Source: Escherichia coli
GTDB taxonomy: Bacteria > Pseudomonadota > Gammaproteobacteria > Enterobacterales > Enterobacteriaceae
Strand: one strand, 5' to 3'
Assembly: GCF_044647545.1 (NCBI RefSeq)
Contig: NZ_CP172818.1
DNA length: 64,000 nucleotides
The position numbers and the translations under genes are program-made. This document shows, in pieces, positions 3,259 to 39,420 of the stretch. The notes under the pieces were generated by a model. It was not told the origin of the DNA. It saw only the letters and a list, made by a program, of their open reading frames with translations, and searched no databases. The stretch's first letter is position 1, and the number at the start of each line of letters is the position of its first letter.

Positions 3259-4509
3259 ATGAATAAACAATCCTGGCTGCTTAACCTCAGCCTGTTGAAA
3301 ACGCACCCGGCGTTTCGCGCAGTATTCCTCGCTCGTTTTATCTCAATTGTGTCTCTGGGTTTGCTCGGCGTCGCGGTGCCGGTGCAGATCCAGATGATGA
3401 CGCATTCTACCTGGCAGGTGGGGCTTTCGGTGACGCTGACCGGCGGCGCGATGTTTGTTGGCCTGATGGTCGGCGGTGTGCTGGCGGATCGCTATGAGCG
3501 TAAAAAAGTGATTTTGCTGGCGCGCGGCACCTGTGGCATTGGCTTCATTGGACTGTGCCTGAACGCGCTGCTGCCGGAGCCGTCATTGCTGGCAATCTAT
3601 TTACTTGGTTTATGGGATGGTTTTTTCGCATCACTTGGCGTTACGGCGCTACTGGCGGCGACACCTGCACTGGTAGGGCGTGAAAACCTAATGCAGGCCG
3701 GGGCGATCACCATGTTGACTGTGCGTCTGGGATCGGTGATTTCGCCCATGATTGGCGGTTTACTGCTGGCGACCGGAGGCGTAGCCTGGAACTACGGGCT
3801 GGCGGCGGCGGGCACGTTTATTACCTTGCTACCGTTGTTAAGCCTTCCGGCGTTGCCACCACCGCCGCAGCCGCGTGAGCATCCGTTGAAATCATTACTG
3901 GCAGGATTTCGTTTTCTACTCGCCAGCCCGCTGGTGGGAGGGATTGCGTTGCTGGGTGGTTTATTGACGATGGCGAGCGCGGTGCGGGTCCTGTATCCGG
4001 CGCTGGCTGACAACTGGCAGATGTCGGCGGCACAGATTGGTTTTCTCTATGCGGCGATTCCGCTCGGCGCGGCTATTGGCGCGTTAACCAGCGGGAAGCT
4101 GGCACATAGTGCGCGACCAGGGTTATTGATGCTGCTCTCCACGCTGGGATCGTTCCTTGCCATTGGTCTGTTTGGCCTGATGCCGATGTGGATTTTAGGC
4201 GTGGTTTGCCTGGCGCTGTTCGGTTGGTTGAGCGCGGTTAGTTCGTTGCTGCAATATACAATGCTGCAAACGCAAACCCCGGAAGCGATGTTAGGGCGGA
4301 TTAACGGTTTGTGGACGGCGCAAAACGTGACGGGCGATGCCATAGGCGCAGCGCTGCTGGGCGGTTTGGGCGCGATGATGACACCGGTTGCTTCCGCAAG
4401 CGCGAGCGGTTTTGGTTTGTTGATTATCGGCGTGTTGTTATTGCTGGTGCTGGTGGAGTTGCGACGTTTTCGCCAGACGCCGCCGCAGATGACAGCGTCC
4501 GACAGTTAA
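3259..4509 (+). CDS. entS: Enterobactin exporter, MFS transporter
   Basis: 416 aa, about 12 hydrophobic segments; divergent from fepD with an iron-box-like sequence between them. Confidence 0.93.
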
Positions 4510-4512
4510 TGC

Positions 4513-5469
4513 TTAAAACAGCGCCTTAAGTCGTTCCAGCACTTGCATGGCGCTGTAGTAATCCAGGCGGAACGTCTCGGTTCCCAGCGCATAAACCTGC
4601 TTGTTTTGTACTGCAGGCAGGTGCGCGAGCAGTGGATTGGCATAAATCGCATCGGCATCTTTCTGATCACCAGCGAACAGGAATAGTGAATCGCCATTTA
4701 ACCCTGCAGCCAGATTTTCTCCACCAAGCTGAATGATGTCATGGCGTTTGCCCTGGCTTTGGCTGGCGTTTAACCCTGCGGGCAATTTCGCCAACGTAAA
4801 GCCGAGTTGTTCCAGCATCTGCCCTTGTGCTGATTCCGGCGTCCAGAGATTGGCACTGTGTGCAGCGGCGGTATAGACAATGGCAGTGACCGGCTGCGGC
4901 GGTAATTTGATTTGCTCTTTCGCCGCCGCCAGTTGCTTATCAAACTGTGCAATCCGCTCTGCCGCTTGTTTCTCATGCCCGGTAATTTCGCCAAGCTGCG
5001 TTAACAGCGACTGCCAGCTTTTGTCGTCGTAATTGATGATTAATGTTGGGGCGATGGTAGAAAGCTGATCGTACAGCGCCAGCGCCGAATCGCCGCCGGT
5101 TGCGCTAATTAAAATCAGATCCGGCATTTGCGCGGCAACGGCTTCGGCGCTCGGTTCGCCGATATAGATCCGTTGCAGTTTGCGTTCTTTCGCCACCTTG
5201 CTCCACTGGCGTAAAAAGCCCTGGTCATCCGCGACGCGGTTATTTGGCGTGGTCGCGCCGCTGGCGATCACCGGAGCATCAATCGCCAGCAGTGAGCCGG
5301 TCAGGGTGACGCTGGTGGAAACTATACGCTGCGGCTGGCTTTCCAGGGTATGAGTGCCCCGGCTGTCAGTAATCTGACGCGGCCAGTCGGCGGCCTGAAC
5401 TGCGACTATTCCTGAAAGCAAAAGTCCTGTTAATAGAAGGGCGTTGCGGTAGAGCGGGGCGAGTCTCAC
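4513..5469 (-). CDS. fepB: Ferric enterobactin periplasmic binding protein
   Basis: 318 aa; N-terminal signal peptide [26 protein letters not shown]; convergent with entS (3-bp gap). Confidence 0.93.
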
Positions 5470-5610
5470 AAATTAGCTTCCTGTTATTAATAGAGTTAAT
5501 GCTTCTCATTTTCATTGTAACCACAAACAGATGCAACCCCGAGTTGCAGATTGCGTTACCTCAAGAGTTGACATAGTGCGCGTTTGCTTTTAGGTTAGCG
5601 ACCGAAAATA

Positions 5611-5631
5611 TAAATGATAATCATTATTAAA
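5611..5631. promoter_or_regulatory. Fur box in the divergent fepB / entC promoter region
   Basis: taaatgataatcattattaaa is a near-consensus iron box; a second AT-rich half-match (ttattaatagagttaatg) lies near 5485-5505. Confidence 0.7.
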
Positions 5632-5657
5632 GCCTTTATCATTTTGTGGAGGATGAT

Positions 5658-6833
5658 ATGGATACGTCACTGGCTGAGGAAGTACAGCAGACCATGGCAA
5701 CACTTGCGCCCAATCGCTTTTTCTTTATGTCGCCGTACCGCAGTTTTACGACGTCAGGATGTTTCGCCCGCTTCGATGAACCGGCTGTGAACGGGGATTC
5801 GCCCGACAGTCCCTTCCAGCAAAAACTCGCCGCGCTGTTTGCCGATGCCAAAGCGCAGGGCATCAAAAATCCGGTGATGGTCGGGGCGATTCCCTTCGAT
5901 CCACGTCAGCCTTCGTCGCTGTATATTCCCGAATCCTGGCAGTCGTTCTCCCGTCAGGAAAAACAAGCTTCCGCACGCCGTTTCACCCGCAGCCAGTCGC
6001 TGAACGTGGTGGAACGTCAGGCCATTCCGGAACAAGCCACGTTTGAACAGATGGTTGCCCGTGCTGCCGCACTTACCGCCACGCCGCAGGTCGACAAAGT
6101 GGTGTTGTCACGGTTGATTGATATCACCACTGACGCCGCCATTGATAGTGGCGTATTGCTGGAACGGTTGATTGCGCAAAACCCGGTTAGTTACAACTTC
6201 CATGTTCCGTTGGCTGATGGTGGCGTTCTGCTGGGGGCCAGCCCGGAACTGCTGCTACGTAAAGACGGCGAGCGTTTTAGCTCCATTCCGTTAGCCGGTT
6301 CCGCGCGTCGTCAGCCGGATGAAGTGCTCGATCGCGAAGCGGGTAATCGTCTGCTGGCGTCAGAAAAAGATCGCCATGAACATGAACTGGTGACTCAGGC
6401 GATGAAAGAGGTACTGCGCGAACGCAGTAGTGAGTTACACGTTCCTTCCTCTCCACAACTGATCACCACGCCGACGCTGTGGCATCTCGCAACGCCCTTT
6501 GAAGGTAAAGCGAATTTGCAAGAAAACGCACTGACTCTGGCCTGTCTGCTGCATCCGACCCCCGCGTTGAGCGGTTTCCCGCATCAGGCCGCGACTCAGG
6601 TTATTGCTGAACTGGAGCCGTTCGACCGCGAACTGTTTGGCGGCATTGTGGGTTGGTGTGACAGCGAAGGTAACGGCGAATGGGTTGTGACCATCCGCTG
6701 CGCGAAGCTGCGGGAAAATCAGGTGCGTCTGTTTGCCGGAGCGGGGATTGTGCCTGCGTCGTCACCGTTGGGTGAGTGGCGCGAAACGGGCGTCAAACTT
6801 TCTACCATGTTGAACGTTTTTGGATTGCATTAA
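5658..6833 (+). CDS. entC: Isochorismate synthase
   Basis: 391 aa from ATG at 5658 (ORF-track GTG at 5646 is an extension); first gene of entCEBAH operon; Fur-box-like sequence upstream. Confidence 0.93.
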
Positions 6834-14319: not shown

Positions 14320-15480
14320 ATGACAAATAACCCTCTGATTCCACAAAGCAAACTTCCACAACTTGGCACCACTATTTTCACCCAGATGAGTGCACTGGCG
14401 CAGCAACACCAGGCGATTAACCTGTCGCAAGGCTTTCCTGATTTTGATGGTCCGCGCTATTTGCAGGAACGGCTGGCGTACCACGTTGCCCAGGGGGCAA
14501 ACCAATACGCACCCATGACCGGCGTGCAAGCATTACGCGAGGCGATTGCTCAGAAAACGGAACGGCTGTATGGCTATCAACCAGATGCCGACAGCGATAT
14601 CACCGTAACAGCAGGGGCGACGGAAGCGCTATACGCAGCGATTACTGCATTGGTTCGCAATGGCGATGAAGTGATTTGCTTTGATCCCAGCTATGACAGT
14701 TACGCGCCCGCCATCGCGCTTTCTGGGGGAATAGTGAAGCGTATGGCACTGCAACCACCGCATTTTCGCGTGGACTGGCAGGAATTTGCCGCATTGTTAA
14801 GCGAGCGCACCCGACTGGTGATCCTCAACACCCCGCATAACCCCAGTGCAACTGTCTGGCAGCAGACTGATTTCGCCGCTCTGTGGCAGGCGATTGCCGG
14901 GCACGAGATTTTTGTCATTAGCGATGAAGTTTACGAGCACATCAACTTTTCACAACAGGGCCATGCCAGCGTACTGGCGCATCCGCAGCTGCGTGAGCGG
15001 GCGGTGGCGGTGTCATCGTTTGGCAAGACCTATCATATGACCGGCTGGAAAGTGGGTTATTGCGTTGCGCCAGCGCCCATCAGTGCCGAAATTCGCAAGG
15101 TACACCAGTATCTGACCTTTTCGGTGAATACCCCGGCACAGCTGGCACTTGCGGATATGCTACGTGCAGAACCTGAGCATTATCTTGCGTTACCGGACTT
15201 TTATCGCCAGAAGCGCGATATTCTGGTGAATGCCTTAAATGAAAGTCGGCTGGAGATTTTACCGTGCGAAGGTACATACTTTTTGATGGTGGATTACAGC
15301 GCCGTATCTACGCTGGATGATGTTGAGTTTTGCCAGTGGCTGACGCGGGAGCACGGCGTAGCGGCGATTCCGCTGTCGGTGTTTTGCGCCGATCCCTTCC
15401 CACATAAACTGATTCGTCTCTGTTTTGCCAAGAAGGAATCGACGTTGCTGGCAGCAGCAGAACGCCTGCGCCAGCTTTAG
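14320..15480 (+). CDS. ybdL: PLP-dependent aminotransferase (class I; methionine aminotransferase)
   Basis: 386 aa; PLP-lysine motif SSFGKTY. Confidence 0.92.
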   Translation: MTNNPLIPQSKLPQLGTTIFTQMSALAQQHQAINLSQGFPDFDGPRYLQERLAYHVAQGANQYAPMTGVQALREAIAQKTERLYGYQPDADSDITVTAGATEALYAAITALVRNGDEVICFDPSYDSYAPAIALSGGIVKRMALQPPHFRVDWQEFAALLSERTRLVILNTPHNPSATVWQQTDFAALWQAIAGHEIFVISDEVYEHINFSQQGHASVLAHPQLRERAVAVSSFGKTYHMTGWKVGYCVAPAPISAEIRKVHQYLTFSVNTPAQLALADMLRAEPEHYLALPDFYRQKRDILVNALNESRLEILPCEGTYFLMVDYSAVSTLDDVEFCQWLTREHGVAAIPLSVFCADPFPHKLIRLCFAKKESTLLAAAERLRQL

Positions 15481-22478: not shown

Positions 22479-22699
22479 AAGCATTCTCTCCTTGTTTTTG
22501 CATGTTATAAAGAACTAAAGCGTTGTTCAAGGTATAGCACTGCAGCACACAATAATTGCTGCTATGAATATATAAATATGCAGTGATATCGAGAGCTTCG
22601 CTCATATGAGGTTATTCCGCAGATGAATAACCAGTTCAGATTAGAATGCTGCAGCATAAGAGAAAAATGATAAATCTGGATAAATTGATATTTGAGCGG

Positions 22700-35756: not shown

Positions 35757-36317
35757 ATGAACGTGAGTAAATATGTCGCTATATTTTTCTTTGTTTTTAT
35801 TCAGTTAATCAGTGTTGGTAAAGTTTTTGCTAACGCTGATGAGTGGATGACAACGTTTAGAGAAAATATTGCACAAACCTGGCAACAGCCAGAACATTAT
35901 GATTTATATATTCCTGCCATCACCTGGCATGCGCGTTTTGCCTATGACAAAGAAAAAACCGATCGCTATAACGAGCGACCGTGGGGCGGCGGTTTTGGTC
36001 AGTCGCGTTGGGATGAAAAAGGAAACTGGCATGGCCTGTATGCCATGGCATTTAAGGACTCGTGGAACAAATGGGAACCGATTGCCGGATACGGATGGGA
36101 AAGTACCTGGCGACCGCTGGCGGATGAAAATTTTCATTTAGGCCTGGGATTTACCGCTGGCGTAACGGCGCGCGATAACTGGAATTACATCCCTCTTCCG
36201 GTTCTACTGCCATTGGCCTCTGTGGGGTATGGCCCCGCGACGTTTCAGATGACCTACATTCCGGGTACCTACAACAATGGCAATGTGTACTTTGCCTGGA
36301 TGCGCTTTCAGTTTTGA
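35757..36317 (+). CDS. pagP: Lipid A palmitoyltransferase (outer-membrane beta-barrel)
   Basis: 186 aa; signal peptide [25 protein letters not shown]. Confidence 0.93.
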
Positions 36318-36491
36318 GACAAATGAAGTTTTAGTAAATTCTTTAAAATCAACCACTAAAATAATTAACATCAAAAATAACGCGACTTTTATCACTTTTT
36401 AGTAAAGTTGCACTGGACAAAGCGTACCACAATTGGTGTACTGGTAACCGACACAGCATTTGTGTCTATTTTTCATGTAAAGGTAATTTTG

Positions 36492-36701
36492 ATGTCTAAG
36501 ATTAAAGGTAACGTTAAGTGGTTTAATGAGTCCAAAGGATTCGGTTTCATTACTCCGGAAGACGGCAGCAAAGACGTGTTCGTACACTTCTCTGCAATCC
36601 AGACTAATGGTTTTAAAACTCTTGCTGAAGGTCAGCGCGTAGAGTTCGAAATCACTAACGGTGCCAAAGGCCCTTCTGCTGCAAACGTAATCGCTCTGTA
36701 A
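36492..36701 (+). CDS. cspE: Cold-shock-domain protein
   Basis: 69 aa from ATG at 36492; RNP1 motif KGFGFI; ORF-track start 36408 is an extension. Confidence 0.95.
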
Positions 36702-36718
36702 GATACGTCAGCAAGAAT

Positions 36719-36750
36719 TCAAAACCCGCTTAATCAGCGGGTTTTTTTTG
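36719..36750. terminator. Bidirectional intrinsic terminator between convergent cspE and crcB
   Basis: aaaacccgct taat cagcgggtttttttt: A-tract, GC stem, T-tract. Confidence 0.8.
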
Positions 36751-37138: not shown

Positions 37139-37233
37139 TGCAAAATCCTGCTATTTGATTTGTATGAGTGATAAGTGTAACGCCGAATAATCGCCGTTGG
37201 CGAATTTTACGACTCTGACAGGAGGAGGTGGCA

Positions 37234-38022
37234 ATGCTGGTTGCCGCAGGACAGTTTGCTGTTACATCTGTGTGGGAAAAGAACGCTGAGATTTGTGCCT
37301 CGTTGATGGCGCAGGCGGCGGAAAACGACGTTTCGCTGTTTGTCCTGCCGGAAGCATTGTTGGCGCGTGATGATCATGATGCAGATCTATCGGTTAAATC
37401 AGCACAGCTGCTGGAAGGCGAATTCCTCGGACGTTTACGGCGAGAAAGTAAACGTAACATGATGACGACAATTCTGACGATTCATGTTCCTTCAACGCCG
37501 GGGCGCGCATGGAATATGCTGGTGGCGCTACAGGCAGGAAACATCGTCGCCCGTTATGCCAAACTGCATCTCTATGATGCATTTGCCATTCAGGAATCAC
37601 GCCATGTTGATGCTGGTAATGAAATAGCTCCATTACTGGAGGTGGAAGGGATGAAGGTCGGTCTGATGACCTGTTATGACTTACGCTTTCCAGAGCTGGC
37701 GCTGGCACAGGCATTACAGGGAGCTGAAATCCTGGTACTTCCTGCCGCCTGGGTTCGCGGGCCGCTCAAAGAGCATCACTGGTCAACGTTGCTTGCCGCT
37801 CGTGCGCTGGATACCACCTGTTATATGGTGGCGGCGGGGGAGTGCGGGAACAAAAATATCGGGCAAAGCCGGATTATAGATCCCTTTGGCGTCACCATTG
37901 CGGCAGCGTCAGAAATGCCTTCACTCATTATGGCGGAAGTGACGCCCGAACGTGTGCGTCAGGTGCGCGCGCAACTGCCCGTCTTAAACAACCGTCGCTT
38001 TGCGCCGCCGCAATTATTATGA
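37234..38022 (+). CDS. ybeM: Nitrilase-superfamily C-N hydrolase (Nit1-like amidase); intact reading frame here
   Basis: 262 aa from ATG at 37234 with SD aggagg upstream; Glu (LPE), Lys (AKLHL) and Cys (MTCYD) triad residues all present, no frameshift or stop. Confidence 0.85.
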
Positions 38023-38354: not shown

Positions 38355-38394
38355 CGTGGCGAGCAGGACGCTCCCTCAATATCTTGTTCGATAC

Positions 38395-38426
38395 AAAAAA
38401 CCCGCTTCAAAAAGCGGGTTTTTTAT
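38395..38426. terminator. Bidirectional intrinsic terminator between convergent tatE and lipA
   Basis: aaaaaacccgc ttcaaaaa gcgggtttttt: A-tract, stem, T-tract. Confidence 0.8.
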
Positions 38427-38454
38427 CAGACAGATGTAAGTAATTATTACAGGA

Positions 38455-39420
38455 TTACTTAACTTCCATCCCTTTCGCCTGCAAATCGGCGTGGTAAGAC
38501 GAGCGGACAAACGGACCGCATGCAGCATGGGTAAAGCCCATCGCCAGCGCTTCGGCTTTCATTTCGTCGAACTCATCCGGGCTAACGTAACGTTGAACCG
38601 GCAGGTGATGGCGGCTTGGCTGCAAATATTGCCCCAGCGTTAACATCGTCACACCATGACGGCGCAGGTCGCGCATTACCTCAATAATTTCTTCATTGGT
38701 TTCACCCAGACCCACCATCAGACCAGACTTGGTCGGGATTTCCGGATGCGCTTCTTTAAAGCGTTCCAGCAGCTTCAGCGACCAGTTGTAATCTGCACCA
38801 GGCCGTACCTGACGGTAAATACGCGGTACGTTTTCCAGGTTATGGTTGAACACATCTGGTGGTGTGGCGGTCAGAATATCCAGAGCACGATCCATACGAC
38901 CGCGGAAATCAGGCACCAGAGTTTCAATTTTGATTTGCGGGCTTTTTTCCCGAATGGCAGTAATGCAATCCGCAAAGTGCTGGGCACCGCCATCGCGCAG
39001 GTCATCACGGTCAACGGAGGTGATAACCACATAACGCAGCGCCATATCGGCAATGGTTTGCGCCAGTTTCACTGGTTCATTGGCATCCGGAGCTACCGGG
39101 CGACCGTGGGCAACGTCACAGAACGGACAACGGCGGGTACAAATAGCGCCGAGGATCATAAACGTTGCTGTGCCGTGGTTGAAGCATTCCGCCAGGTTAG
39201 GGCAGGAGGCTTCCTCGCAGACAGAATGCAGGCCATTTTTGCGCATTGCGGCTTTGATGCCCTGGATACGTGTAGAGTCCGCTGGAAGCTTGATTTTCAT
39301 CCATTCCGGCTTGCGCAGCAGGGCTTCGCGCTCTGTTGCCACGTTTTTAACCGGGATAAGGGCCATCTTATCGGCATCGCGGTATTTAACACCGCGTTCC
39401 ATCACAATGGGTTTACTCAT
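38455..39420 (-). CDS. lipA: Lipoyl synthase (radical SAM)
   Basis: 321 aa; radical-SAM CxxxCxxC as CTRRCPFC. Confidence 0.96.

Follow-up and report, generated by a model that had tools for sequence, protein, structure and literature searches.

An intact ybeM gene in a non-K-12 Escherichia coli strain, predicted to encode a Nit1-type amidase

In the E. coli reference strain MG1655, ybeM is annotated as a pseudogene (b4581; 658031-658818 of NC_000913.3, 788 nt). An open ybeM frame in the E. coli DNA analysed here, a stretch of 64,000 nucleotides referred to below as the window, raises the question of whether it is a working gene, what its product would do, and which of the two states is the ordinary one for the species. 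An earlier note on this DNA had the gene as disrupted in K-12, and the status of b4581 agrees with that. We hold with high confidence that the ybeM of the window is the wild-type, functional allele of a Nit1-type amidase and that K-12 carries a derived loss-of-function allele. The features that enter into this reading are the following.

37139..37233, no strand: 95-nt spacer between the divergent genes crcB (minus strand) and ybeM, holding the 5' regions of both (ORF map)
37220-37228, plus strand: Shine-Dalgarno sequence aggaggagg, separated from the ATG by the 5-nt spacer tggca
37234..38022, plus strand: intact ybeM coding sequence (open reading frame, Pfam PF00795, NCBIfam NF033621, identical annotated DNA)
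37351-37353, plus strand: GAA, Glu40, the triad glutamate, in the motif LPE
37433, plus strand: G present here and deleted in K-12, the second base of codon 67 (CGT, Arg67), placed by alignment to NC_000913.3
37561-37563, plus strand: AAA, Lys110, the triad lysine, in the motif AKLHL
37594..37596, plus strand: Glu121, a second glutamate, eleven residues past Lys110
37672-37674, plus strand: TGT, Cys147, the nucleophile, in the motif MTCYD

Both the sequence and the ORF map give an uninterrupted frame of 789 nt, that is, 262 codons and a TGA. The mechanical list of reading frames starts it at a GTG at 37228, two codons before the ATG at 37234, and it is this ATG that is the RefSeq start in strains with identical DNA. 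The Shine-Dalgarno sequence ahead of it is strong. In MG1655, CFT073, D1 and 2018-01-1CC it reads aggagg, whereas the window has one AGG more; Of the 5,426 complete genomes of E. coli, 848 carry the same expanded form. The earlier description of a 262-codon frame starting at an ATG behind an aggagg is thus correct, with a Shine-Dalgarno sequence that is longer here than described. Judged by its translation, this is not a chance frame, since a CN_hydrolase match extends over 243 of the 262 residues and orthologues of 262 residues are found in the Enterobacteriaceae. The gene is co-linear with these orthologues, drawn from seven genera, with no frameshift, premature stop or insertion, and unlike that of strain JNE21-003 it is free of an IS element. 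Antisense reading frames within ybeM are short, and no further feature was detected within the gene on either strand.

The nearest relatives of the window lie outside K-12. Positions 25001-50000 are 100% identical to MS6198, ECONIH1, IMT16316, RS571 and others, and over the full 64 kb the identity to MS6198 is 99.97% with a few small indels. That the window is MS6198 throughout was considered and rejected because of these indels, the one near 22510 amounting to about 89 nt: this much of the uspG-yldA intergenic region of MS6198 is absent from the window (at about 22510-22518), a difference that may be a repetitive-element polymorphism. The ybeM DNA itself is identical to the gene of FDAARGOS_497 and MS6198, whose protein, WP_001330455.1, has the RefSeq name deaminated glutathione amidase. 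The genes around it, pagP, cspE, crcB (minus), ybeM, tatE, lipA (minus) and ybeF (minus), are in the standard E. coli arrangement. Further away, 22 kb upstream of ybeM, lies ybdL, annotated as a methionine-oxo-acid transaminase, at about 14320-15480 (a position carried over from MS6198 with an offset of about +80). Deaminated glutathione is reported to arise from the action of transaminases (PMC7041631), but the presence of ybdL here is no evidence of a functional link.

The family to which YbeM belongs is clear at the level of the superfamily. Residues 3-245 cover positions 2-255 of the 256 in the Pfam CN_hydrolase profile PF00795 (E = 2.8e-41; 142 bits, where the gathering score is 23.2), and an alpha-beta-beta-alpha sandwich fold is implied by the similarity in sequence to 40 superfamily members of solved structure. 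Within the superfamily, YbeM scores 450.8 bits with NCBIfam NF033621, the model for deaminated glutathione amidases (EC 3.5.1.128; enzymes expected to have little activity on glutathione or glutamine), about 95 bits above the cut-off of 355, although this is an 'exception'-type model that was probably built around YbeM's own group, so that passing it is partly circular. All sister NCBIfam models fall far short of their cut-offs, the next being NF043013 (the Yersinia-type deaminated glutathione amidase), at 83.6 bits against 500. The best matches among solved structures are Caenorhabditis elegans NitFhit (1EMS; 9.4e-30, 107 bits) and yeast Nit2 (4H5U; 8.8e-27, 97 bits), followed at lower scores by mouse Nit2 (2W1V; 3.4e-22, 82 bits) and yeast Nit3 (1F89; 4.8e-20, 75 bits). 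YbeM is thus nearer to the Nit1-type than to the Nit2-type structures, by a modest margin (107 and 97 against 82 and 75 bits). As far as its sequence can tell, YbeM is a Nit1-type carbon-nitrogen hydrolase of the nitrilase superfamily, and it carries all the sequence features, among those that could be tested, by which the superfamily and the Nit1-type family are defined. The earlier suggestion of a Nit1-like amidase is therefore upheld by the score above the NF033621 cut-off and by the Nit1 type of the top structural relatives.

Since Nit1 and Nit2 proteins are closely related, and the Nit2-type structures 2W1V and 1F89 still match YbeM at the values given above, the protein might instead be an omega-amidase of the Nit2 type, with 2-oxoglutaramate or 2-oxosuccinamate as its substrate, or an amidase for some other small substrate. 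This we regard as very unlikely. The E. coli omega-amidase is YafV, and the model for YafV-type amidohydrolases, NF007757, gives YbeM 60.6 bits against a cut-off of 249. The distance by which NF033621 is exceeded and the ranking of Nit1-type proteins as the top structural relatives also speak against an omega-amidase, as does a paper in mSystems in which NIT1 is equated with YbeM and NIT2 with YafV. The role in metabolite repair that had been ascribed to Nit1-like amidases accords with the literature: Nit1 repairs deaminated glutathione, a transaminase by-product formed from glutathione, yielding 2-oxoglutarate and Cys-Gly, which are recycled, and it is conserved in 'many bacteria' (PMC7041631). 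That E. coli YbeM would act on deaminated glutathione accords with its curated naming by NCBI. Peracchi et al. (2017, PNAS) reportedly assayed Nit1 homologues of bacteria, an E. coli YbeM among them.

A functional amidase of this type would need its catalytic residues, and these are in place. The glutamate, lysine and cysteine that had been picked out in the LPE, AKLHL and MTCYD motifs align column for column with the residues of 1EMS: Glu40 with Glu54, Lys110 with Lys127 and Cys147 with Cys169, these 1EMS residues being the catalytic triad of the superfamily (PMC3537687, citing Pace et al. 2000). The two deposited forms of yeast Nit2, 4H5U and 4HGD, differ within the aligned stretch solely in the column opposite Cys147, where the former has Cys and the latter Ser, which marks this column as an engineered active-site position. 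A second glutamate helps catalysis in other nitrilase-superfamily enzymes, and Glu121 aligns with a Glu in the 'mESe' segment of 1EMS. None of the four residues varies when 15 enterobacterial orthologues are aligned, each of 262 residues and 72-99% identical, from Escherichia, Citrobacter, Salmonella, Leclercia, Kosakonia, Enterobacter and Cronobacter. Comparison of intact ybeM alleles within E. coli gives a pN/pS of 0.07-0.13, or about 0.1, which indicates purifying selection.

These residues allow a mechanism to be proposed by analogy with the superfamily. The analysis shows the open frame, the sequence-based family assignment, the catalytic triad, the lesion in K-12, the allele frequencies and the purifying selection; the substrate and the chemistry we infer. 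YbeM would be a cytoplasmic enzyme of 262 residues, the product of an ancestral intact gene kept in a non-K-12 strain. Its expected substrate would be deaminated glutathione arising as a side-product of transaminases. Cys147 would attack the amide carbonyl of the substrate with Glu40 as the general base, and Lys110, together with Glu121, would stabilise the tetrahedral intermediate. A thioacyl-enzyme would form and then be hydrolysed, and the overall products would be 2-oxoglutarate and cysteinylglycine, so that the enzyme would serve in metabolite repair or salvage.

What sets K-12 apart can be read from an alignment of the MG1655 gene with the coding sequence of the window. The two differ by twelve substitutions and one absent base, the only difference in length, and it is this base, the G at 37433, whose loss shifts the K-12 frame at codon 67, so that translation would meet stop codons once about 75 residues have been read. 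The alignment that had been proposed for finding a frameshift does therefore locate one. The earlier alternatives, that the window encodes a functional allele or comes from a non-reference strain, both seem to apply, as this is a non-K-12 strain with an allele that looks functional from its sequence.

The standing of the two alleles in the species was sampled by k-mer searches of complete E. coli genomes, among which the ybeM locus was found in 5,424 of 5,426. The K-12-type deletion, followed by a junction 40-mer that only the deletion allele can match, is carried by 860 genomes (about 16%). The corresponding intact 41-mer of the window is present in 3,680, and a CFT073-type variant (G66D) in 158. 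It was considered whether this variant would account for all of the roughly 880 genomes that match neither the K-12 word nor the window's 41-mer, and this was rejected, the variant being limited to the 158. About 726 genomes (a count reached by subtraction, with word-11 blastn) have a single substitution and no gap over the 41-nt span, and the two of these that were checked are both annotated as intact. About 84% of the 5,424 complete genomes thus have no indel at the K-12 site. Intact ybeM is the ordinary and commoner state in E. coli; the exception is K-12.

The deletion is by no means confined to laboratory strains. Of the 60 carriers listed among the 860, roughly two thirds were isolated from humans, animals, water or soil and are not K-12 derivatives. 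In NCTC86 (622-1409 of the locus sequence) and the bovine strain 26561 (332-1119) the gene is annotated as 'frameshifted', at the same site as in K-12, and when the G is restored their alleles become the intact allele of strain 2018-01-1CC; this identity implies that the deletion is recent and natural. MG1655 with its G restored has two further non-synonymous changes relative to this shared allele, V33A and V37A. These two changes, seen in MG1655 alone, involve three nucleotide changes within 13 nt. A second, independent disruption of ybeM is found in E. coli O166:H15 JNE21-003, where an IS21-family element, ISEc62 (istA-istB), lies near the 3' end of the gene, at roughly 37931 of the window. 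The element occupies 3934-5900 of the JNE21-003 locus sequence, with the insertion at about query position 832. The natural spread of the null allele shows that some lineages, at least, can do without the enzyme.

Tolerance of the null in about 16% of genomes, and of an IS insertion in at least one strain, could also be taken to mean that the gene of the window is open but silent or decaying, a cryptic gene heading for the condition seen in K-12. The scan for consensus sigma-70 promoters fits with this, as it gave no match, under its rules, in the 95-nt crcB-ybeM spacer. However, we give this reading almost no credence, because intact alleles show a pN/pS of about 0.1, neither the catalytic residues nor the length of 262 residues changes across genera, the Shine-Dalgarno sequence is strong, and expression has been both measured and found to be regulated in CFT073. 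In that strain the ybeM transcript is down-regulated (0.30-fold) under NO conditions, and ChIP-seq places an NsrR peak inside the gene, 345 nt past its first base, a point that corresponds to about 37579 of the window; ybeM is also among the targets found by ChIP-chip of NsrR in K-12 (PMC5320621). The response of the transcript to NO means that one strain, at least, expresses an intact ybeM. A functional, selected amidase gene thus remains our reading of the window. As for the possibility that the K-12 difference is a sequencing artefact in the window or the reference, no assembly error is commoner than the single-base indel, but the possibility can be dismissed, since the deleted G lies outside any homopolymer run (acGttt), the census, which has the deletion in 860 complete, independent genomes and intact alleles in over 4,500, effectively refutes it, MG1655 curators have kept b4581 as a pseudogene, and laboratories use 'the pseudo gene ybeM' as a neutral integration site for cassettes (PMC7242477).

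Other signals around ybeM were also sought. The terminator scan around the gene gave a weak 5-bp stem alone, at 38000-38013, overlapping the stop codon. Fluoride riboswitches often accompany crcB genes, and one was considered ahead of the crcB gene here; it was rejected, as an Rfam scan of the 95-nt crcB-ybeM spacer gave no hit at E <= 1. Elsewhere, the cspE region (36301-36749) matches the Rfam family RF01766, 'cspA thermoregulator', with 136 bits, where the gathering score is 78; this presumably reflects the similarity of the paralogous cspE and cspA mRNAs and is no evidence for thermoregulation of cspE. In the convergent tatE-lipA spacer (38389-38527) there are several sub-threshold Rfam hits to leaders and sRNAs (E 0.02-0.8), and a pile-up of this kind is what a shared, Rho-independent terminator hairpin typically produces, rather than any of those RNAs. 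In UTI89, over-expression of short, out-of-frame internal fragments of ybeM from pBAD24 leads to filamentation, whereas the full-length reading frame causes none; one such fragment encodes MFLQRRGAH (PMC6206680). This filamentation is probably an artefact of over-expression.

Two extensions of these findings go further than the allele itself. One is that the K-12 frameshift is a very recent natural null which has come to make up about one-sixth of sequenced E. coli, from human, animal and environmental sources, the repair of deaminated glutathione being unnecessary, if not slightly costly, for one successful lineage; we consider this a rather unlikely, speculative account. The other is a role for YbeM beyond the pure salvage of deaminated glutathione, for example in nitrosative stress, at which the NsrR ChIP peak inside ybeM hints and which it suggests as a further stretch. 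The gene, the name of its product, its family and its pseudogene status in K-12 are all in public annotation and were already known. Mildly informative by-products of the analysis are the presence of the K-12 null in about 16% of genomes and the AGG-expanded Shine-Dalgarno sequence in 848. In practice, K-12 is atypical at ybeM, and work on the repair of glutathione damage in E. coli needs a strain with intact ybeM or a repaired K-12. The sequenced isolates that are natural ybeM nulls, about 16%, are usable for comparison.

Set beside known systems, YbeM scores lower with the omega-amidases of the Nit2 type (2W1V, 1F89 and YafV), with which it has in common the superfamily branch, the triad and presumably the thioacyl-enzyme chemistry, and from which it would differ in substrate, theirs being 2-oxoglutaramate, unlike the one annotated for YbeM. 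With the eukaryotic Nit1 proteins (mouse and human Nit1, 4H5U and the Nit domain of 1EMS) it shares the CN-hydrolase domain over the whole length, an aligned Glu-Lys-Cys triad and the annotated reaction. The similarity is nonetheless distant (E about 1e-27 to 1e-30), and YbeM has neither the Fhit fusion nor the mitochondrial targeting sequence of this group and is shorter, at 262 residues against 341 in the deposited yeast Nit2 chain. K-12 MG1655 has ybeM at the same locus and in the same orientation, with about 98% nucleotide identity, and differs from the window, beyond the frameshift, in V33A and V37A and in one AGG fewer in its Shine-Dalgarno sequence. The YbeM of O157:H7 Sakai (ECs_0664) is identical to the protein of the window at 260 of 262 residues, with Arg in place of His124 and Ala in place of Ser230. 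Thus, the YbeM represented by WP_001330455.1 and ECs_0664 differs from that of the window in nothing of substance, the differences being allelic substitutions and the extra AGG only.
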